From a virus: 39,348 bases of DNA. The notes beneath the pieces were generated by a model. The model saw only the letters and a list, made by a program, of their open reading frames with translations, had not been told where the DNA came from and did no database searches. Made by a program: the position numbers and the translations under genes. The DNA lies in the UHGV virus genome UHGV-0146801. One strand, given 5' to 3'. The first letter of the stretch is position 1. The number at the start of each line of letters is the position of its first letter. Positions 1,830 to 24,907 of the stretch are shown in pieces.

Positions 1830-3347
1830 TTAATCAAATGATGTGGCCAGTTCAATTAATTCAATGTAATTATGTAAGGCATAAAAAGATGTATTCAGTC
1901 CATTCTCTATAAGGGCTCCTTGCAAATACTTTATAGCTGTATCACCATCAATAGGGCCTTGTTGAGATTTAATCATTAGTGAATTTTGCCCATTGTTTTT
2001 TATACTTGATTTAAGTATTTTTATATTATTGATAAAATACAATGCAACATCTAAGTAATTTATTAATGTTAAACTTATTTTGGGCTCGATCTGTGAGATG
2101 AATAATCTACTGTTCGCCGTTGTATAGATATAATTGACACCTATTCTTTGCTGATTTGTATCAAGATTTAATTCAAGGATGGCTTGAGAAACACCTTTTA
2201 AATTGGAGCTTTGCTTTATCGAATCAGTGAAACGTTGTGCTGCATTTCTTCGACCAATTAGTCCATCTATAATTTGACGATCCTTATCATATATAATCAT
2301 TAGCGAAATTATAAAAATATAATCTACTTTCTTTTTGACTAAATCAGATTTAAGAATGTCTATTAACCTTTCAGTATTTCGGATTGAGTCTCTTAGATTT
2401 AACCCAAATGCTTCAAATACGTTGGAAATATTTATTGAAAAGTCTTCTAATGTTGCGGTTAGTGGGTATGTTTTTGATGTGATATTTTCAAACTCGGTAC
2501 CAATATAATCACCAACAACACCATTAATTAAATCTTTAAGTTCAGGTTGTTTTAAAGTAAATCTTCTATGAAAAAAACGGCCTAAATAGTCATTTGCGGA
2601 AAAATCATTACCGTAAACATTCTTGATTGAATGTTGTAATTGATCTGTGTCAGTAGCAATAATAAAGACAAAATTTTTAATATCGAATATATGTTTAACA
2701 ATCTCTAAAAGAGAAATTGCATAATCTGGCCTGCATCTGTCTAATTCATCTATAAAGATAAATATAGGACATGAAAAACTATTTTCATATGCCAACCTAG
2801 ACCATAACGTAAGTTCTTTTTTTAATACCTTAATGCTCTTCAGTTTTTCCTGGTGTTCCTTCAGCATTATTAATGAGGCTTCTTTGGCTATATCACCTAC
2901 GTTATCTACTCCTGCATAAGTCTTGATTAGGCCAGATATGATTTCAGGTAGAACACCTTTTGTAAAGCGTCCGATAGCATGGCCGCTTTGTATCAATCGA
3001 GCATCAAGTTTTCCTGCATATGTTTGCAATTGTTGTGACAAAGAAGAAAAAAGGGTTAAAAATGCATCATCAGAAAAGTCTTGCTTCCAGGCATCAATGT
3101 AAACGCATGGGTGTGCATCTTTTATTGAGTTATAAAATCTCTTTATGAAAAAACTTTTACCAGCTCCCCATTCTGCATTAAGGTTGATTACCGTGTTGTT
3201 CTTTTGCCCCTTTTCCTTAAGATAAAAATATAGATATTCTGCATAGTGTCTCCGATTAAGTTTGTCTTTGGAGAGAATTTCCTCTTCGTCGTCTAATATA
3301 AAGGTAGTTTCTTCATCCCAGTTCCAATTACAATCACCACATTTCAC
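1830..3347 (-). CDS. KAP-family P-loop NTPase (cargo, candidate defence gene)
   Basis: 505 aa; Walker A with KAP-type tryptophan NAEWGAGKSFF and Walker B IFIFIDELDRCRP (DELDRC motif); AT-rich coding sequence. Confidence 0.8.
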   Translation of the reverse strand: MKCGDCNWNWDEETTFILDDEEEILSKDKLNRRHYAEYLYFYLKEKGQKNNTVINLNAEWGAGKSFFIKRFYNSIKDAHPCVYIDAWKQDFSDDAFLTLFSSLSQQLQTYAGKLDARLIQSGHAIGRFTKGVLPEIISGLIKTYAGVDNVGDIAKEASLIMLKEHQEKLKSIKVLKKELTLWSRLAYENSFSCPIFIFIDELDRCRPDYAISLLEIVKHIFDIKNFVFIIATDTDQLQHSIKNVYGNDFSANDYLGRFFHRRFTLKQPELKDLINGVVGDYIGTEFENITSKTYPLTATLEDFSINISNVFEAFGLNLRDSIRNTERLIDILKSDLVKKKVDYIFIISLMIIYDKDRQIIDGLIGRRNAAQRFTDSIKQSSNLKGVSQAILELNLDTNQQRIGVNYIYTTANSRLFISQIEPKISLTLINYLDVALYFINNIKILKSSIKNNGQNSLMIKSQQGPIDGDTAIKYLQGALIENGLNTSFYALHNYIELIELATSFD

Positions 3348-3372: not shown

Positions 3373-4296
3373 TTAATGTAAACAACTTATAATAACTTTT
3401 GCAATAAACTCAATGTCTGTAAGCGAACATTCAAAAGAGTGATTTTTGGATGAAATATAAACTCGTCCTTTAGGTAGTCGAGTTATCATTCTAAATGAAT
3501 TCTCTCCATCAATATTTACTAGCCACTTACCATCATGTACATCTTTAAAACCCATTTCACATATTAATTCAGAGTCTTCGGTAGATACTACGAATGCATT
3601 TTTTAAATTGGAAGGTAGAAAACATGGGTCAAATAAATATGAGCCATCATTTATTAACTTGCCATTGATTAATACTTTTTTCACTAATGTTAAAGTATCT
3701 TTATTTTTTGCGTTTTTCATTTCTCCTGTACCAAATGAAATCCATTCAATAGAATGGCCCGTTTCTATTGCACACTGCAAAACCCAGTCTGCAGGAAAAA
3801 TGTCACGCATGTATCGTGTGGCTAATGTGCTTTTTGAAATACCTAGGTGATCAGCTAATGCTTGGCGCGTTTTGTAACCGTAAGCCTCGACAATTCGTTC
3901 TATTGTTGCCTTACCCCCTCGGTTAAAATTCATGAGTTTTTCATTATCGAACTTTATAGTGGGAATGTATACTTCATTGCAAAGGCCATTAACGGCATGT
4001 TTTTCAGAATATTGCTCTGATGAAGGAGCAGTATCTGAACCAAGAACTAACCATTCAATTGATGCTCCTGTTTCTATGGAACATATAACAACCCAATCTG
4101 CAGGAAAGGTATTACGTGCATATCTGTTGGCCATAGTACTTTGGGAAATACCTAGATGATTACATAATGCCTGTCGTGACTTGAAGCCATAGGCTAGGAG
4201 TATACGCTCAATAACTTTTTGCCCTCCACGATTCTGCATGACTATTGCTTTCAGATCGTTTTTGATATGGCTAAATTTTAATTTTTGAGTTGACAT
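3373..4296 (-). CDS. CI-repressor paralog with two tandem N-terminal HTH domains and a CI-like C-terminal domain
   Basis: 307 aa; two copies of the I(E)R(I/M)(L/V)xAYG(F/Y)K(S/T)RQAL..HLGISxST(M/L)A.RY.R..FPADWV block, and a C-terminus that aligns with the adjacent CI (LPKGRV vs LPGGRI, FLPSNLKNAFVV vs FLPSTLKNPFVI). Confidence 0.75.
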   Translation of the reverse strand: MSTQKLKFSHIKNDLKAIVMQNRGGQKVIERILLAYGFKSRQALCNHLGISQSTMANRYARNTFPADWVVICSIETGASIEWLVLGSDTAPSSEQYSEKHAVNGLCNEVYIPTIKFDNEKLMNFNRGGKATIERIVEAYGYKTRQALADHLGISKSTLATRYMRDIFPADWVLQCAIETGHSIEWISFGTGEMKNAKNKDTLTLVKKVLINGKLINDGSYLFDPCFLPSNLKNAFVVSTEDSELICEMGFKDVHDGKWLVNIDGENSFRMITRLPKGRVYISSKNHSFECSLTDIEFIAKVIISCLH

Positions 4297-4346: not shown

Positions 4347-4922
4347 TTACTCAAAGTACTTAACTGTTATGGTTATAATTTTTCCAATAATTTCGATTTC
4401 TTCTTTTTTACATTCGAAAGCCCTATTTCCACCTTCAACTAAGATTCTTCCACCAGGTAAACGAGTGATATCGCGGATTGTTACTTCGGCATCAATACTT
4501 ATTACCCATTTGCCGTCACGAATATCGTTAAACTCTTTATCGCAAATAAAAACGGAATTGTTATCGGTGATTACAAACGGATTTTTGAGCGTAGATGGTA
4601 GAAATTCTTTATCGAAAATATAAAAACCATCTTCCTGCAAGGTTCCATCAGATAATACATATTTAACGACTTCCATAGTATTTGTATTACCTGAAGTTTG
4701 CTTTGAACCATGTCCGGTCGTGAGCCAGTTAAGCGAGGCGCCCGTTTCAAGTGCGCACTGGATTACCCATTCAGCAGGGAATGAGTCACGCATATAGCGT
4801 GTGGCGAGAGTACTTTTAGAGATTCCTAAGTGATCGCACAACGCCTGTCGAGTCTTGAAGCCATATGCTTCTACCATGCGCTCTATAGCGCCTCGTCCGC
4901 CTTTCTCCAAATTCATGGTCAC
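4347..4922 (-). CDS. cI: Immunity repressor CI, phage 186 type
   Basis: 191 aa; N-terminal HTH (AYGFKTRQALCDHLGISKSTLATRY) and C-terminal oligomerisation-like domain; divergent from apl/cII as in 186. Confidence 0.85.
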   Translation of the reverse strand: MTMNLEKGGRGAIERMVEAYGFKTRQALCDHLGISKSTLATRYMRDSFPAEWVIQCALETGASLNWLTTGHGSKQTSGNTNTMEVVKYVLSDGTLQEDGFYIFDKEFLPSTLKNPFVITDNNSVFICDKEFNDIRDGKWVISIDAEVTIRDITRLPGGRILVEGGNRAFECKKEEIEIIGKIITITVKYFE

Positions 4923-7395: not shown

Positions 7396-8249
7396 GCACC
7401 ATCCTGAAATGGGCGGGTAATAAAACTGCCATTATGTCCGAACTGAAAAAACATCTTCCTGCTGGCCCGCGACTGGTTGAACCTTTCGCGGGTTCCTGTG
7501 CTGTGATGATGGAGACGGATTACCCCAGCTATCTTGTTGCGGATATTAATCCTGATTTAATCAACCTCTATAAAAAGGTTGCTGCTGATTGCGAGGCGTT
7601 TATATCTCGTGCCAGAGCTTTATTTGAGGAAGCAAACAGGGAGGTGGCTTATTACAACATAAGGCAGGAGTTTAATTACTCCACTGAAATTACTGATTTC
7701 ATGAAAGCGGTATATTTCCTGTATCTCAATCGTCATGGTTACCGTGGGTTATGTCGTTATAACAAGAGCGGGCATTTCAACATTCCATACGGTAATTATA
7801 AAAATCCGTATTTCCCTGAAAAAGAAGTTCGCGCATTTGCAGAGAAAGCCCAGCGAGCAACGTTTATCTGCGCCAGCTTTGATGAAACGCTGGCGATGCT
7901 GCAGGTGGGGGATGTGGTGTATTGCGATCCGCCTTATGACGGTACGTTTTCCGGCTATCACACTGACGGCTTCACTGAAGATGACCAGTATCACCTGGCA
8001 TCTGTTCTTGAATATCGATCATCAGAAGGTCATCCAGTCATTGTTTCTAACAGTGACACATCCCTGATCCGTTCGCTGTATCGAAATTTCACTCACCACT
8101 ACATCAAGGCAAAACGCAGCATCGGCGTGTCGGCTGGCGAGAGTAAATCTGCAACAGAAATCATTGCTGTTTCCGGGGCGCGCTGCTGGGTGGGATTTGA
8201 TCCTTCGTGTGGCGTGGATAGTTCTGCTGTGTACGAGGTGCGTGTATGA
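7392..8249 (+). CDS. dam: DNA adenine methyltransferase (Dam-like, no cognate nuclease nearby)
   Basis: N-terminal KWAGNK and FAGSCAV (SAM-binding) and catalytic DPPY motif ([10 protein letters not shown]); ATG 7392 after GGAGG. Confidence 0.85.
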
Positions 8250-10660
8250 GTCATGACGATATGAGCAACTCTAGCGGCTTTAACGAGGCCGCTGCAGCAT
8301 TTTCATGGAACGGCCCGAAAAAGGCCATTAACCCTTATCTGGACCCGGCGGAAGTTGCTCCGGAGTCTGCACTTTTAAACCTGATCACTCTGTACGCTGC
8401 CGATAATGAGCAGGAACAGCTGCGCCGCGATGCACTGAGTGAGCAGGTCTGGGAGCGTTATTTCTTTAATGAATCTCGTGATCCTGTCCAGCGCGAAATG
8501 GAGCAGGATAAGCTCATTAGCCGGGCAAAGCTGGCGCATGAGCAGCAGCGTTTTAATCCAGATATGGTCATTCTGGCGGACGTCAATGCCCAGCCTTCCC
8601 ATATCAGCAAGCCGCTGATGCAACGTATTGAATACTTCAGCAGCCAGGGCAGGCCAAAGGCTTATTCCCGCTATTTGCGTGAGACGATTAAGCCATGTCT
8701 GGAACGACTGGAGCATGTACGCGACTGTCAGCTATCCACTTCTTTTCGCTTTATGGCAAGCCATGAAGGGCTGGACGGCCTGCTGATCCTGCCTGAAATG
8801 AGTCAGGATCAGGTGAAGCGTCTGTCTACCCTTGTCGCTGCGCATATGAGCATGTGCCTTGATGCAGCTTGTGGTGATTTGTATGCCACCGATGACGTTA
8901 AGCCAGAAGAAATCCGCAAGACGTGGGAAAAGGTGGCAGCGGAAACCCTGCGTCTGGATGTTATCCCGCCTGCGTTTGAGCAACTCCGTCGGAAAAGAAA
9001 CCGCCGTAAACCCGTGCCCTATGAACTCATTCCGGGTTCGCTGGCGCGTATGTTGTGCGCCGACTGGTGGTATCGGAAATTATGGAAGATGCGTTGCGAA
9101 TGGCGGGAAGAGCAGTTGCGCGCTGTCTGCCTGGTCAGCAAAAAAGCATCTCCCTATGTCAGCTATGAAGCCGTGATGCATAAACGTGAGCAGCGCCGTA
9201 AGTCGCTGGAGTTTTTTCGTTCTCATGAACTGGTGAACGAAGACGGCGACACGCTGGATATGGAAGACGTGGTAAACGCCAGCAGCAGCAACCCTGCGCA
9301 TCGCCGCAATGAGATGATGGCCTGTGTTAAAGGTCTGGAGCTTATCGCGGAAATGCGCGGAGACTGCGCCGTTTTCTACACTATCACCTGTCCGTCACGT
9401 TTCCATTCCACGCTCAACAACGGCAGACCCAACCCGACCTGGACAAATGCGACGGTAAGACAAAGCAGCGATTATATGGTCGGCATGTTTGCTGCATTTC
9501 GTAAGGCAATGCACAAAACCGGGTTGCGCTGGTATGGCGTGCGGGTGGCTGAGCCGCACCATGACGGTACTGTGCACTGGCATCTCATGTGCTTCATGCG
9601 TAAAAAAGACCGCCGCGCCATCACTGCATTACTGCGTAAGTTTGCCATCCGTGTAGACCGCGAGGAGCTGGGCAACAACACGGGGCCACGCTTTAAGTCT
9701 GAGCTGATTAACCCGCGCAAAGGAACACCGACAAGCTACATCGCGAAATACATCAGTAAGAACATTGACGGGCGTGGTCTGGCTGGCGAGATCAGCAAGG
9801 AAACGGGTAAATCCCTGCGTGATAACGCCGAATACGTTAATGCCTGGGCGTCTCTGCATCGTGTTCAGCAATTCCGCTTCTTTGGTATTCCGGGGCGTCA
9901 GGCTTACCGTGAACTGCGATTGCTGGCTGGTCAGGCGGCAAGGCAGCAGGGGGACAAAAAAGCAGGTGCGCCGGTACTGGATAACCCACGCCTTGATGCC
10001 ATTCTGGCTGCTGCTGATGCTGGTTGTTTTGCCACCTACATCATGAAGCAGGGCGGCGTACTGGTTCCCCGCAAATATCACCTCATCAGAACCGCTTATG
10101 AAATCAACGAAGAGCCGACCGCCTATGGCGATCACGGCATTCGTATTTATGGCATCTGGTCACCCATTGCAGAGGGCAAGATCTGTACTCATGCAGTGAA
10201 ATGGAAAATGGTTCGTAAGGCCGTTGACGTTCAGGAGGCGGCAGCCGACCAGGGCGCTTGCGCCCCTTGGACTCGTGGCAATAACTGTCCCCTTGCTGAA
10301 AATTTGAACCAACAAGGGAAAGACAAATCAGCTGATGGGGACTCCAGAACGGATATTACCCGTATGAATGACAAGGAGTTGCACGATTACCTGCATAGTA
10401 TGAGCAAAAAAGAGCGCCGGGAACTGGCTGCAAGGTTACGCCAGGTGAAACCGAAACGGCGTAAAGACTACAAACAGCGAATTACAGACCATCAGCGACA
10501 GCAGCTCGTCTATGAACTGAAGTCCAGGGGATTTGATGGCAGCGAGAAAGAAGTCGATTTGCTCCTTCGCGGCGGCAGTATTCCGTCAGGAGCAGGCCTG
10601 CGTATCTTCTATCGGAACCAGCGTCTGAAGGAAGATGATAAGTGGCGGAACCTGTATTAA
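8246..10660 (+). CDS. A: Replication initiation endonuclease, P2 gpA-like
   Basis: 804 aa; HxH-type motif VHWHLMCF and tyrosine-rich [14 protein letters not shown] typical of rolling-circle initiators; position as in P2/186. Confidence 0.85.
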
Positions 10661-10754
10661 TTACGCGGGTTAACAATTCGTGCTCTTAATAATACCAGGC
10701 ATATCAGGCCGATGAACGTAAAAAAACGTTTTACATCAGTAAGATTATTATATA

Positions 10755-10770
10755 CTGTAAATATAAACAG
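10755..10770. promoter_or_regulatory. LexA box (SOS box) CTGTAAATATAAACAG
   Basis: Perfect CTGT-N8-ACAG with AT-rich core, about 45 bp upstream of the ORF starting at 10813. Confidence 0.7.
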
Positions 10771-10812
10771 TGGTTATGTGTACAGTATTGTTTTGGTGTC
10801 ATAGGAGGAAAG

Positions 10813-11001
10813 ATGCAGGACTATTTTTTGGAGTCTTTGAAGCTCCAGCGCATTGATTTTTTTCTTAAGCTTGTAGCGGCTAGTGAGTGTAGTGATGAAG
10901 AGAAGGGGCTGGCTCTGCAGTGGGTTTCTGAATTGACTGATGAACTCATGGCAAAAATCAGAAGCCACGAATACAACCGCTCAATGGATGTCATCAGCTG
11001 A
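10813..11001 (+). CDS. Small SOS-regulated protein, function unknown
   Basis: 62 aa ORF with AGGAGG RBS directly downstream of the LexA box. Confidence 0.5.
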   Translation: MQDYFLESLKLQRIDFFLKLVAASECSDEEKGLALQWVSELTDELMAKIRSHEYNRSMDVIS

Positions 11002-11011
11002 GGTGACTTTT

Positions 11012-11245
11012 ATGCGCATTGAAATAATGATCGATAAAGAGCAGAAGATTAGCCAGTCTACCCTGGACGCCCTTGAATCCGAGCTTTACCGCAATCTGCG
11101 CCCCCTGTATCCCAAAACGGTAATTCGCATTCGCAAAGGTAGCTCTAACGGTGTGGAACTAACCGGACTGCAACTGGATGAAGAAAGAAAACAAGTGATG
11201 AAAATTATGCAGAAGGTGTGGGAGGACGACAGCTGGCTGCATTAA
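11012..11245 (+). CDS. DinI-family protein (Tum-like antirepressor candidate)
   Basis: 77 aa, MRIEIMIDKEQKISQSTLDALESELYRNL resembles DinI/MsgA; position and LexA control parallel the phage 186 tum module. Confidence 0.7.
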   Translation: MRIEIMIDKEQKISQSTLDALESELYRNLRPLYPKTVIRIRKGSSNGVELTGLQLDEERKQVMKIMQKVWEDDSWLH

Positions 11246-11437
11246 GAAATGTTGCCCCCAGGAGGATTCATTCTGATGGGGGCTAGTTTGGGCAATGAGT
11301 GAAATAAGGCGTAAGGTGGGCGGTTATTTTGATCAGTGATCGTCCGCTTTGTGTCAGAAGCAGAAGTGGGAGTGTCTGAGACTCTCTAAAAGTTGATGAT
11401 TCACTTACAAAACCATTTTCCTGATGGATGCTTACAC

Positions 11438-11773
11438 TTACGAATGATCATTCTGTTTAGTCTTCATGAGAAAATCCCGAATCTTTGCCAAGTTTGAATT
11501 TTCGGGGATTGAATCCATGTACGGATCACGCTCAAACACTAATTGCTCAGATTCAACGAAAGCCTGCCACTCTACTGGGTCTAGCTCAAATCCCATTGCT
11601 GTCATATCACTTTCATCTTCCCCCTCGATCCAGTGGACTAAATAAAACAATTCATCATCAGGAGAATCATCCTCACCATCAACAATATCAACATCGGTTA
11701 CAGTGATACGTAGGGTGGGATCGATTTTTGAGACATAAATTCCTAACTGTGGTATAGGGGGAATATTGTTCAT
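11438..11773 (-). CDS. Small, highly acidic protein (candidate DNA mimic or anti-defence)
   Basis: 111 aa with about 25% Asp+Glu and few basic residues; runs of DGEDDSPDDE and EGEDESD. Confidence 0.6.
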   Translation of the reverse strand: MNNIPPIPQLGIYVSKIDPTLRITVTDVDIVDGEDDSPDDELFYLVHWIEGEDESDMTAMGFELDPVEWQAFVESEQLVFERDPYMDSIPENSNLAKIRDFLMKTKQNDHS

Positions 11774-12291
11774 GGAAACTCCTTTTATTGGTGTTTGCTA
11801 TTTGAATAAAAATACGCCAAACAGAGTGTTAACTGTGAATATGGAAAGAATCGTTGTAAGTACCCCGCTTAGGTGTCCCATTCTATTTTAGAGGTTCTCG
11901 TGCATATGGATTATGTTATCTGAAAGTTAACTTCCGCTTCCCGTTCACAGCGAACATTCATCTTTGTAAACCCGTATGATCCGTTTTTCAAGTGGCCATT
12001 CAGATACGGATTTTTACTTCTTTGACAGTGCATGACTATGCTGCATGAAATCGCATGATCGATTGAGGATCGTCTTTGCTCAGATCCGCCAGAACTGGCG
12101 GGCTTTTGCTCATGTCATGCATGTGCATGAAAACCACTGCATAAAGCGGGCAGGCGTGGCGGGGATACGAGCGCGCGCGGATACATAATTAATAATATAA
12201 CATAAAATGTTAAGTTGCTTTTGCGTTAGCACTGGATTACATTACCGAAATAGTCAAAAATGCGTTTTTTACGCAAAAATGAGGACTTCAG

Positions 12292-13521
12292 ATGCTAGTT
12301 GCATTCAGTTTAGAAAATTACAAGAGCTTTCGCGAAAGACAGGTTCTTAGTTTTGCTTCCTCAATTGGGGATGAGCATCCTGAACATATCGTGACATTAG
12401 CGAATGGTTTAAGAGTAAACAGATTTGCCGCATTAATAGGCGGAAATGGTGTTGGTAAAACACAATTAATAAATGCTATTACTGAATTTGCAAATTCAAT
12501 TCATAGTGACACATTACACAAATTGCATATGCCTTTCCTTCTAAATAAGGAATGTCGTAACAAACCTACTTCCTATGAAGCGATACTGATTGATGAAGAG
12601 CAAAAAAACTTCGTCCGTTATGGTGTGTCAGTTTTAAATGAAGTTATTGTAGATGAGTATTTATACATTAGACCGATAAGAAAAAATGCAAGGGAACAAT
12701 GTATTTTTATTCGCAATGAAAATGGGTTGGTTTTCAAAAAGCCCGACTTAAAAAAATACGAGTCGTTGATTAATCCTGTCTTAAGAGAAAGTGGAGCTGT
12801 TGTAACTTTTGCAAAATCTTTAGAAATTGATGCTCTTGTTGAAACCCAACGCTGGGCATTAAAACAATTGCCTTATTACTCTGAAAAATTCAAAAATCCA
12901 AGTCTTAAATTTGTTGAAGGACAACTTAAGCGCCAGTTATCAGGTGAGGAAGGAAATGAAAAATTAAATGAGAGTGGTCAAAGAATTTTAAATACCTATA
13001 ATGAAATGGTTATTCAGTCGCCGCTGCATATAGATAAAGTTGAATTTGTAAGATTTGGCGAAGATAATGAGTATAAATTTGTTTATCTCATAAAAAATGA
13101 TGATGGTGATTTTACTAGAATAGGCCCTGACCGTAGGGATGAATTTTTTTCCCAAGGCACACTAAATGTTTTAACATTTTTAGCAATATTGATTTGGGCT
13201 AGTGAATATGATTTTACACTTTATGTGGATGAAATAGATTCATCTATTCACTATTCTTTGGCAAGTGCACTAATCAAAAAAATATTTGATAAAACCTGCC
13301 GTAAAAATGGTGTGCAGTTTATTATGTCTACACATAATATTCCTTTATTAGATGATGTGTTTAGAAGAGATGAGCTTAATATTATAGTCAAGGATTCATC
13401 TAAAGCGTCGATAATAACTAATGCTACGGTATTTTCTGTAAGGAAAGATGCTAAAGTGTCTGCCAAATATTTACGTGGCGAATTTGGATTAGTTCCAGCT
13501 TTTCTTGATATAAAAAACTAA
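12292..13521 (+). CDS. ABC/OLD-type P-loop ATPase (AAA_15/21-like)
   Basis: 409 aa; Walker A GGNGVGKT, signature-like FSQGT, Walker B/D-loop LYVDEIDSSIH, H-loop MSTHN; AT-rich. Confidence 0.8.
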   Translation: MLVAFSLENYKSFRERQVLSFASSIGDEHPEHIVTLANGLRVNRFAALIGGNGVGKTQLINAITEFANSIHSDTLHKLHMPFLLNKECRNKPTSYEAILIDEEQKNFVRYGVSVLNEVIVDEYLYIRPIRKNAREQCIFIRNENGLVFKKPDLKKYESLINPVLRESGAVVTFAKSLEIDALVETQRWALKQLPYYSEKFKNPSLKFVEGQLKRQLSGEEGNEKLNESGQRILNTYNEMVIQSPLHIDKVEFVRFGEDNEYKFVYLIKNDDGDFTRIGPDRRDEFFSQGTLNVLTFLAILIWASEYDFTLYVDEIDSSIHYSLASALIKKIFDKTCRKNGVQFIMSTHNIPLLDDVFRRDELNIIVKDSSKASIITNATVFSVRKDAKVSAKYLRGEFGLVPAFLDIKN

Positions 13522-13534
13522 GCGTGAGAAAAAC

Positions 13535-14614
13535 ATGACTAGCTTTGCTTATGATGGTGATATTTTGACACCTAATAATTTAGAAATTACATCCTTCGCC
13601 ACATTGAAATCAAAAATAAGAGAGCGAAGAGTATGTGTTTTTCTCGGAGCAGGATTTTCTAAAGCCTGGGATGACAAATACCCATTGAGTAATGAAGTCT
13701 TTTCCATCTCTGAAGACGAAGCATTAGAAAATATTGATGAGTATGGTTTTTTTTCTTTGTTCGACAGTCTTAAATTTAAATGGGCGGATGCTAATGCAGG
13801 TTTAGATGACAAAGCTAATGTTTTCAAGAGTTTTAAATATGCATTGGATGTTTATAAGCGATATCCAAGTTTATTGCCGTCGTATCTTGATAGGCATACG
13901 CTTGAGTTGTTTGAGGCACAAGTAAAACTATATGTAAAAAATAAGTTTGCAAAAAAAATACCGGCAAATGATTTAAAGCTAAGTCAAACTGCAAAATTTG
14001 GGCAGAATAAAAGGAATATTATTTCTTTCTTTAAGAGTTTACAGGAAGCTTCAGCACTGGATGTAGTCACAACAAACTACGATATAGTTATTGATAAAGT
14101 GCTACATCATGCATTCCCTGAACGTTCAGTTAATCGGGGTTTTCCTGTGCATCATAATAATATATTAGTGTGTCCTCAGCCTAAAGGTATAGGTTTGTAT
14201 AAGCTTAATGGAGGATTTGAGGTTGTTGCTGCAAGGGATGGTTTTAAAATAGATTATGATTCATTATTAAACGCAAAAGTTGTTCCAAATATTATCTTGC
14301 CTTCAAATGAACAAGACTATGGGGATAAATACTTTAAGTCAGCTTTTGTGAAATCCTCTACCCAGTTGAGACAAGCAGATCTGTTGATCTTTATAGGTTA
14401 TTCTTTCCCAAAGGAAGACTTTATTATTAATTTTCTTTTGAAGACTTTTCTGGATGGCGATAGTACTGAAAAAGAGACTGTTATTATTGGGCGAAATAAA
14501 TCTAGTGCTATTGAGATACACCAGCGTGCGTGTGAAGTTTTTAAAGAACTAAATGATAAATCTGCACTGTATTATTTCGGTGGTAGTTTTTCTGATTTAT
14601 GTAAACAATGTTAG
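13535..14614 (+). CDS. SIR2-like (DHS-like NAD-binding fold) protein, candidate NADase effector
   Basis: 359 aa; Rossmann motif VCVFLGAGFS, TTNYD motif (VVTTNYDIVID), C-terminal LLIFIGYSFPKED; 13 bp downstream of the ATPase. Confidence 0.75.
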   Translation: MTSFAYDGDILTPNNLEITSFATLKSKIRERRVCVFLGAGFSKAWDDKYPLSNEVFSISEDEALENIDEYGFFSLFDSLKFKWADANAGLDDKANVFKSFKYALDVYKRYPSLLPSYLDRHTLELFEAQVKLYVKNKFAKKIPANDLKLSQTAKFGQNKRNIISFFKSLQEASALDVVTTNYDIVIDKVLHHAFPERSVNRGFPVHHNNILVCPQPKGIGLYKLNGGFEVVAARDGFKIDYDSLLNAKVVPNIILPSNEQDYGDKYFKSAFVKSSTQLRQADLLIFIGYSFPKEDFIINFLLKTFLDGDSTEKETVIIGRNKSSAIEIHQRACEVFKELNDKSALYYFGGSFSDLCKQC

Positions 14615-14619
14615 TATAC

Positions 14620-14645
14620 TAGGCCTGATTACAGGCCTATTTTCT
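14620..14645. terminator. Hairpin TAGGCCTG-atta-CAGGCCTA followed by TTTTCT between convergent SIR2-like and Q genes
   Basis: Perfect 8-bp stem with 4-nt loop and T-run on the + strand. Confidence 0.55.
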
Positions 14646-24012: not shown

Positions 24013-24907
24013 CCTTTCGCAGTTGCCTGCGCCGCAGATTGTGGATGTGCCGGACTTTGAGACGCTGCTTGCCGAACGCAAGGCCGAATTTGTTGCGCTT
24101 CATCCGAAAGATGAGCAGGAAGCAGTGATCCGCACGCTGGAACTGGAATCTGAACCCGTCACCAAATTGCTGCAGGAGAACGCTTACCGTGAGTTGCTTC
24201 TGCGCCAGCGCATTAACGAAGCCGCACAGGCGGTAATGGTGGCTTACGCGATGGGCAGCGATCTTGACCAGCTCGCTGCCAACTACAACGTGAAACGCCT
24301 GACGGTGACGCCTGCTGATAATGACGCTGTGCCGCCCGTTGCAGCTGTGATGGAAAGCGATGAAGCGTTACGCCTGCGTGTGCCTGCAGCCTTTGAAGGG
24401 CTTTCAGTTGCGGGGCCAACTGCAGCTTATGAATTTCATGCCCGAAGCGCCGACGGTCGGGTGGCGGATGCCAGTGCAACCAGCCCGGCACCTGCAGAGG
24501 TGGTGCTGACTGTCCTTAGCCGCGAAGGCGATGGAACTGCAGAAAAAGACCTGCTGGACGTGGTGGAAAAAGCTCTGAACAGTGAGAACGTCCGCCCGGT
24601 GGCTGACCGTCTTACGGTTCGCAGCGCAGAAATCATCCCGTATCGCGTGGAAGCCACCATTTTTCTCTATCCGGGACCGGAAGCAGAGCCGGTAATGGCA
24701 GCGGCAAAAGCCAGCCTGCAGAAGTACATCGCCAGTCAGACGCGTCTTGGTCGGGATATTCGCCGTAGCGCCATCTTTGCCGCCCTGCATGTTGAGGGTG
24801 TGCAGCGTGTGGAGCTGGCTTCTCCTCTGGCGGATGTGGTCCTGAACAAAACACAGGCGGCATCATGTACGCAGTGGAGCGTAACCAACGGAGGAACGGA
24901 TGAATAG
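23999..24907 (+). CDS. J: Baseplate protein, P2 gpJ-like
   Basis: ATG 23999 gives MAVIDLSQLPAP N-terminus after AGGAG RBS; 302 aa. Confidence 0.85.
   Translation: MAVIDLSQLPAPQIVDVPDFETLLAERKAEFVALHPKDEQEAVIRTLELESEPVTKLLQENAYRELLLRQRINEAAQAVMVAYAMGSDLDQLAANYNVKRLTVTPADNDAVPPVAAVMESDEALRLRVPAAFEGLSVAGPTAAYEFHARSADGRVADASATSPAPAEVVLTVLSREGDGTAEKDLLDVVEKALNSENVRPVADRLTVRSAEIIPYRVEATIFLYPGPEAEPVMAAAKASLQKYIASQTRLGRDIRRSAIFAALHVEGVQRVELASPLADVVLNKTQAASCTQWSVTNGGTDE

Follow-up and report, generated by a model that had tools for sequence, protein, structure and literature searches.

[quoted passage not shown] 1998, as cited in PMC3121763). The second half of Tum is DinI-like (PMC3121763, Lemire et al. 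2011). Tum of 186 is a single protein of 146 aa with annotated internal starts, and one of these is annotated for a DinI-only product that is said to modulate SOS induction. The gene is served by a LexA-repressed promoter located just 3′ of gene A, in which the lone LexA box starts with the six bases of the −10 hexamer TACTGT; orf97 follows downstream in the same operon. The tum gene is split in two in Fels-2 and PSP3 (PMC3121763, citing Bunny et al. 2002), and the antirepressor activity of PSP3 was assigned to the upstream gene of the split tum (PMC3121763). This upstream gene of PSP3 (NC_005340), tumA, encodes 60 aa and is annotated as ‘similar to 5′ end 186 tum; UV induction of prophage’. 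It is preceded by a single LexA box and followed by the DinI-like gene tumB, which lies in the same frame at a distance of the stop codon and one further codon. The CI of PSP3 is a 286-aa form with two helix-turn-helix domains.

The corresponding genes of Fels-2 are STM2728, annotated as a hypothetical protein, and STM2726.1, annotated as a ‘DinI family protein, similar to TumB of PsP3’ (GenBank). The mutagen MX raised the expression of the DinI-like STM2727 5.5- to 14.8-fold, and STM2726–2728 behaved as a single differentially expressed operon (PMC2225428). For DuoHS, a P2-like prophage of E. coli HS, an in-frame deletion of tum and a lexA(Ind−) allele each abolished mitomycin-C lysis and the appearance of viral foci (PMC12055606; Phollow, Nat Microbiol 2025). 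The deleted gene has the locus tag ECHS_RS04495 (supplement to PMC12055606). In the HS genome this tag denotes a 62-aa gene located immediately 3′ of the replication endonuclease gene, with a DinI-like gene next to it on the downstream side. On the mechanism, the same paper states that Tum ‘inhibits pro-lysogenic regulators’, and no more. A LexA-repressed operon with a small antirepressor and a DinI homologue, acting on a non-cleavable repressor, is also found in the Gifsy prophages (gfoA/gftA, PMC3121763); there, unlike the locus described here, dinI comes first, and the repressor and antirepressor families are both different. Overlapping double SOS boxes were described for ColE1 cea (Lu & Chak 1996, as cited in PMC2994835), and the double boxes of colicin genes are bound cooperatively by two LexA dimers with very low basal expression as the result (PMC2994835).

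The stretch of DNA analyzed here, referred to below as the window, is 39,348 nt long and constitutes a complete P2-like (Fels-2-like) prophage that adjoins rcdA. Its genes include int, a 186-type cI, an Apl/Cox-like gene, and a 186-type cII. The SOS module occupies the position of tum in 186, directly 3′ of gene A; the gpA-like gene ends at 10660 and the operator region starts at approximately 10730. The features of this region are as follows.

8246–10660: P2 gpA-like replication gene, 804 aa, directly 5′ of the SOS module
10730–10735, plus strand: putative −35 hexamer TTTACA, assigned by analogy with the annotated promoter p95 of 186
10753–10758: putative −10 hexamer TACTGT, overlapping LexA box 1
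10753–10772: LexA box 1, TACTGTAAATATAAACAGTG, a consensus LexA box with the core CTGT-N8-ACAG (CTGTAAATATAAACAG) at 10755–10770 on the plus strand
10768–10787: LexA box 2, CAGTGGTTATGTGTACAGTA, with the core GTGG-N8-ACAG at 10770–10785, which overlaps the core of box 1 by 1 bp
10813–11001, plus strand: tumA-like gene (tum in DuoHS) for a 62-aa antirepressor candidate, with an ATG start and AGGAGG at 10803–10808
11012–11245, plus strand: tumB-like gene for a 77-aa DinI-family protein (Pfam DinI, PF06183)

The module is the SOS-induction switch of a Fels-2/186-type (Peduoviridae) E. coli prophage. The segment of about 640 bp that spans it shares 96–98% identity with Fels-2, with many Peduoviridae of Klebsiella and Escherichia, and with phage vB_EcoM-813R9. 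Between the window and Fels-2, the DNA identity of the operator and the two genes is 97%, the half-sites of both LexA boxes included. The module of DuoHS is approximately 97% identical at the DNA level, encodes the same two proteins with 100% identity, retains box 1 and the half-sites of box 2, and likewise adjoins rcdA. Both relatives differ from the window in the central spacer of box 2 and in the cargo 3′ of tumB, and the CI of DuoHS is 91%, not 100%, identical to that of the window.

The original prediction placed a perfect LexA box about 45 bp upstream of a 62-aa ORF at the head of a two-gene module. This box was confirmed at 10755–10770, where the pattern CTGT-N8-ACAG has its single occurrence in the window, and the distance measured from the end of the core to the ORF is 42 nt. 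The loose pattern itself is expected 0.55 times per shuffle by chance, and 42 of 100 shuffled sequences contained it at least once. Matrix scoring, which had been suggested as a check, separated the box from such chance matches. With a LexA matrix derived from a set of 27 E. coli sites not drawn from a curated file, so that absolute scores are approximate, the 20-mer of box 1 scored 23.2 bits, the best of the 39,329 positions in the window (training-site median, 20.2 bits). The best score in any of the 100 shuffles was 18.3 bits. The sequence of box 1 is identical in Fels-2 and DuoHS.

The order of elements in the intergenic region is TTTACA, 17 nt, TACTGTAAATATAAACAGTGGTTATGTGTACAGTATT, AGGAGG, and the ATG of the 62-aa ORF. 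The geometry TTTACA-17 nt-TACTGT resembles that of 186 p95 (TTCACA-18 nt-TACTGT), and the −10 hexamer coincides with the first six bases of the LexA box in both phages. The −35 region is invariant in Fels-2 and DuoHS. By analogy, this promoter is a putative counterpart of 186 p95 with the LexA operator overlapping the −10 hexamer. It was not called in a generic sigma-70 promoter scan because its −10 hexamer matches at just 3 of 6 positions.

The weaker box 2 was absent from the original prediction. Its score of 12.2 bits is the third best in the window, and the box on its own is no better than chance, with 0.52 such sites expected per shuffle. When the window, DuoHS, Fels-2, and Yersinia phage MLG42 were compared, the half-sites of box 2 were found to be constant and the three central spacer bases variable; the latter are GTG in the window, ACA in DuoHS, and ATG in Fels-2. 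The two LexA cores have one base pair in common and together read CTGT-N8-ACAG-TGG-N8-ACAG, whereas 186 and PSP3 each have a single box. The same arrangement is seen in the ColE1 cea-type operators, in which two 16-bp cores sharing one base pair follow the pattern CTGT-N8-(A/C)CAG-TGG-N8-ACAG and are flanked by TATT as in the window. The 35-nt double-box unit could be aligned base for base with three operators taken from plasmid records, those of ColE1 cea, pPCP1, and a Klebsiella 9-kb plasmid. The Fels-2 operator has counterparts with 85–92% identity over approximately 42 nt in more than 1000 plasmids of the colicin, pesticin, and klebicin types, and the identity between the Fels-2-like and the bacteriocin-plasmid operators is about 90% over about 40 nt. 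The plasmid operators drive bacteriocins, in contrast to the prophage antirepressor of the window, and the upstream promoter and the downstream leader are unrelated.

The pattern CTGT-N8-ACAGTGG-N8-ACAG was also searched for in IMG/VR and is present in at least 120 contigs. A homologue of the 62-aa gene is located directly downstream in 99 of the 120 matches listed, and 89 of these 99 listed loci also carry a DinI-like gene. A control pattern with the second spacer one base longer (N9) gave 37 GC-rich matches, none of which is beside a homologue of the 62-aa gene. These comparisons suggest that box 2 is real and that the operator is an overlapping pair of the colicin type. By analogy with the colicin genes, both boxes at the module promoter would be occupied by LexA, and the tight repression provided by a double box would suit a gene whose expression kills the host. 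A report that a lexA null mutation of Salmonella is lethal due to Fels-2 (cited in PMC3121763) agrees with this idea. A MAFFT alignment paired the LexA box of 186 with box 2. This pairing was not used to decide which box is ancestral because the promoter geometry favors box 1 as the functional counterpart.

The 62-aa ORF was found downstream of the box as predicted, at 10813–11001, and its product is 100% identical to ECHS_RS04495 of DuoHS. No alignment was obtained by pairwise BLASTP of this ORF with either 186 Tum or PSP3 TumA. An exhaustive search yielded 67 clusters at 50% identity, whose listed representatives are nearly all short, and a family profile with 51 members was obtained from it. 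The family HMM matches residues 6–48 of 186 Tum with 32.2 bits, whereas 5000 shuffles of Tum residues 1–70 gave at most 8.5 bits. In a profile–profile comparison using hhalign, residues 3–44 of the family align with residues 3–44 of 186 Tum with a probability of 96% and E = 2.9e-9; within the aligned columns, only approximately 19% of the residues are identical to those of the Tum N-terminus. The relationship is supported independently by PHROGs, where the 62-aa ORF is assigned to phrog_698 and also matches phrog_8554 and phrog_1993. All three are matched by 186 Tum, and PSP3 TumA belongs to phrog_1993. Judged by these profiles, the homology of the 62-aa protein to the N-terminal (antirepressor) part of 186 Tum is distant yet significant. 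The antirepressor part of 186 is too diverged from that of the window for BLASTP, in agreement with an identity of 31% between the two CI proteins, and strong divergence from Tum is expected if the 62-aa protein must track a CI that differs to this extent.

The AlphaFold2 model of the 62-aa protein (pLDDT 89) is a two-helix hairpin with helices at residues 2–23 and 28–61 and the conserved Cys26 in the turn. Trp37 is invariant in the family and corresponds to a leucine in 186 Tum. No Pfam family and no match among solved structures were found for the ORF, and no recognizable DNA-binding domain was detected in the two-helix hairpin by Pfam, structure search, or AlphaFold2.

The 77-aa protein is 100% identical to ECHS_RS04500. 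It is matched by the Pfam DinI profile with E = 6.6e-23, residues 14–76 aligning with positions 1–63 of the 63 profile positions, and by the structure of DinI (PDB 1ghh) with E = 2.7e-6, residues 1–75 aligning with DinI residues 1–77. The identity is 41% to the C-terminal part of 186 Tum and 31% to E. coli DinI. For comparison, PSP3 TumB is 46% identical to the same part of Tum. A full-length DinI domain ends the module, as the original prediction had proposed for its 77-aa DinI-like protein, and the relation of the Tum C-terminus to DinI, which had been stated there, is borne out. The alignment with 186 Tum that had been suggested relates the 62-aa ORF to the N-terminus by profiles only and the 77-aa ORF to the C-terminal part. 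By analogy with DinI, the 77-aa protein most likely binds RecA filaments and modulates their co-protease activity or the SOS signal.

The two ORFs do not share a reading frame, and a gap of 10 nt separates them. They do not form a fused polypeptide of approximately 146 aa, as in 186, and the module has the tumA/tumB arrangement of Fels-2 and PSP3, in the latter of which the two genes share one frame. The split had been predicted to set this module apart from 186 tum. Two ORFs are indeed present in place of one, but the novelty that this implied did not hold since the split is on record for Fels-2 and PSP3 (PMC3121763; tumA/tumB annotation), and 186 itself is annotated with an internal start for a DinI-only product.

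The homology to Fels-2 and DuoHS stops exactly at the stop codon of tumB. An inverted repeat, GCCCCCA-N16-TGGGGGC, is located directly after tumB at 11254–11283 and is followed by TAGTTTGGG. This repeat could be a weak terminator of the SOS operon, in a position comparable to that of 186 t95a. It was not called in a terminator scan because the loop is too long. The segment from 11246 to 14640 is variable cargo with the following genes.

11438–11773, minus strand: ORF of 111 aa, no family
12292–13521: AbiLi-like AAA_21 ATPase
13535–14614: SIR2-like protein

This cargo is probably an anti-phage defense pair in a variable slot of the phage group. It is unrelated to orf97, which is part of the tum operon in 186, and the first ORF of the cargo is on the strand opposite to the module.

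The presumed target of the antirepressor and two further genes are encoded as follows.

4347–4922, minus strand: cI, 186-type immunity repressor (Pfam Phage_CI_repr and Phage_CI_C), presumed antirepressor target
3373–4296, minus strand: CI paralogue of 307 aa, between cI and int, with two Phage_CI_repr helix-turn-helix domains and CI_C
1830–3347, minus strand: KAP-family P-loop NTPase, after the CI paralogue (PADLOC PDC-S20, E = 7e-78)

The CI of the prophage is 31% identical to 186 CI and 91% identical to DuoHS CI. No S24 peptidase was found among its Pfam matches at E ≤ 0.001, which is in keeping with the proposal that the module acts on a 186-type CI that is not cleaved in response to RecA. 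The CI of the window also differs from the 286-aa form of PSP3 with its two helix-turn-helix domains. The CI paralogue is 57% identical to the prophage’s own CI and has the architecture of PSP3 CI. The paralogue and the KAP NTPase are absent from the related phages in the collection compared. One idea is that they might represent a CI-like sensor or decoy coupled to a defense NTPase.

A second strong LexA-like box is located near int.

1775–1794: LexA-like box, AACTGTATGTTTGACCAGTG, located 32 nt 5′ of the int start, with a score of 18.4 bits that exceeds those of all 100 shuffles
1743, minus strand: ATG of int

A hairpin, GCCCTC-ATATCA-GAGGGC, lies between this box and the start of int. The box is conserved in 813R9, 4LV2017, and DuoHS, and the neighboring bases vary. 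From its sequence and position, it may be a second SOS input that acts on int.

Distant members of the small-protein family were also used to examine how the module is composed elsewhere. Starting from three such members, 23 distant loci were found. A strong LexA box (19–28 bits) is located 16–46 nt upstream of the small gene in 22 of them; in the remaining one, the contig extends no further than 34 nt upstream. A DinI-like gene is located downstream in only 2 of the 23. ESSI-2-type phages possess the LexA box and the small gene without the DinI-like gene, and the relatives of the N-terminus of 186 Tum are mostly stand-alone proteins of 63–78 aa. Because the distant relatives mostly lack a DinI-like gene and the relatives of the Tum N-terminus mostly stand alone, the conserved unit, as read from these gene neighborhoods, consists of the small gene and the LexA box in front of it; a DinI-like gene may or may not accompany them, and the unusual form is the fused Tum of 186. 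Split genes are the prevailing form of the module, which was found in 1126 of 5426 complete E. coli genomes. The small gene is labeled ‘hypothetical protein’ in RefSeq (10813–11001 in the window, and also 24620–24808 of locus L005) and ‘unknown function’ in PHROGs 698, 8554, and 1993.

The module is very probably an SOS operon in which a 62-aa Tum-like antirepressor acts on a non-cleavable CI and the DinI-like protein is an accessory. In the lysogen, LexA bound to the double operator, over the −10 hexamer and the start region, would keep the operon silent. Upon DNA damage, RecA would be activated, LexA would cleave itself, and the operon would be transcribed. The two-helix product of the 62-aa gene would then bind the non-cleavable 186-type CI and free the lytic promoter, leading to lytic growth. 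The DinI-like product would bind RecA filaments and tune the SOS signal as an accessory rather than as the trigger. The direct binding of the 62-aa protein to CI and the role of the DinI-like protein are proposed by analogy with 186 Tum and DinI. The original prediction regarded the module as the likely SOS sensor and antirepressor of the prophage; this receives genetic support from DuoHS, where an identical tum and a cleavable LexA are both needed for induction (PMC12055606).

It is conceivable that tumB is the true inducer, acting via RecA or CI, and that the 62-aa ORF is a mere leader that allows tumB to be translated. Both 186 Tum and most of the IMG/VR loci listed with a double box and the small gene (89 of 99) include a DinI-like part. 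The GAGG located 8 nt upstream of the tumB ATG shares bases with the stop codon that ends the 62-aa ORF, and both this ribosome-binding site and the stop codon fall within a small hairpin at 10990–11007, so an in-frame deletion of the upstream gene could change the translation of tumB. If the two genes are translationally coupled, the deletion in DuoHS could have lowered tumB expression. The hairpin was considered as a coupling or attenuator element, but it is no more stable than shuffled sequence (z = −0.98). The LexA box and the small gene are retained without a DinI-like gene in 21 of the 23 distant loci and in ESSI-2 phages, PSP3 was reported to carry its antirepressor activity in the upstream gene (PMC3121763), the annotation of 186 treats the DinI-only products as modulators rather than inducers, and deletions of dinI in Gifsy phages were without effect (PMC3121763). 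A tumB inducer is therefore highly improbable.

The module could also be SOS-regulated with a 62-aa protein that triggers lysis in a manner other than by binding to CI, for example, by transcription activation or through Apl/Cox or CII. The low identity to the Tum N-terminus, the replacement of the invariant Trp37 by leucine in 186 Tum, and the limited wording on mechanism in PMC12055606 leave space for such an activity. The homology to the N-terminus of Tum is, however, collinear from the protein starts (residues 3–44 with residues 3–44), and the genomic position, the promoter geometry, and the 186-type CI partner are all as in 186. The 62-aa two-helix hairpin, likewise, shows no recognizable DNA-binding domain. 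This alternative is thus given very little chance of being correct, and the reading in which the 62-aa protein acts as an antirepressor on CI is preferred.

The module is real and ordinary, and it has already been described by means of the genetically characterized, identical protein in DuoHS. To that description, the present analysis adds the homology of the 62-aa protein to the N-terminus of Tum by profiles, the double LexA operator, and the core consisting of a LexA box and a small gene. What remains as new is confined to the colicin-type double operator and a possible additional LexA site close to int. A tentative and somewhat doubtful proposal is that in Fels-2-like prophages the single tum LexA box of 186 and PSP3 was replaced by a colicin-type double operator and that this operator, together with the second conserved LexA-like box near int, might provide an SOS circuit that has two inputs and is tighter, higher in threshold, or delayed. 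For Fels-2-like phages, no description of a double operator or of a two-input circuit was found in the literature searched, which was exclusive of Bunny et al. 2002.

The way in which this prophage senses DNA damage was identified correctly by the original prediction, but it is already on record in the literature for identical or near-identical sequences. The double operator may explain the tight repression of a host-lethal gene. An annotation gap is also apparent since the small gene is present in approximately one-fifth of the complete E. coli genomes and the identical gene of DuoHS is needed for induction.
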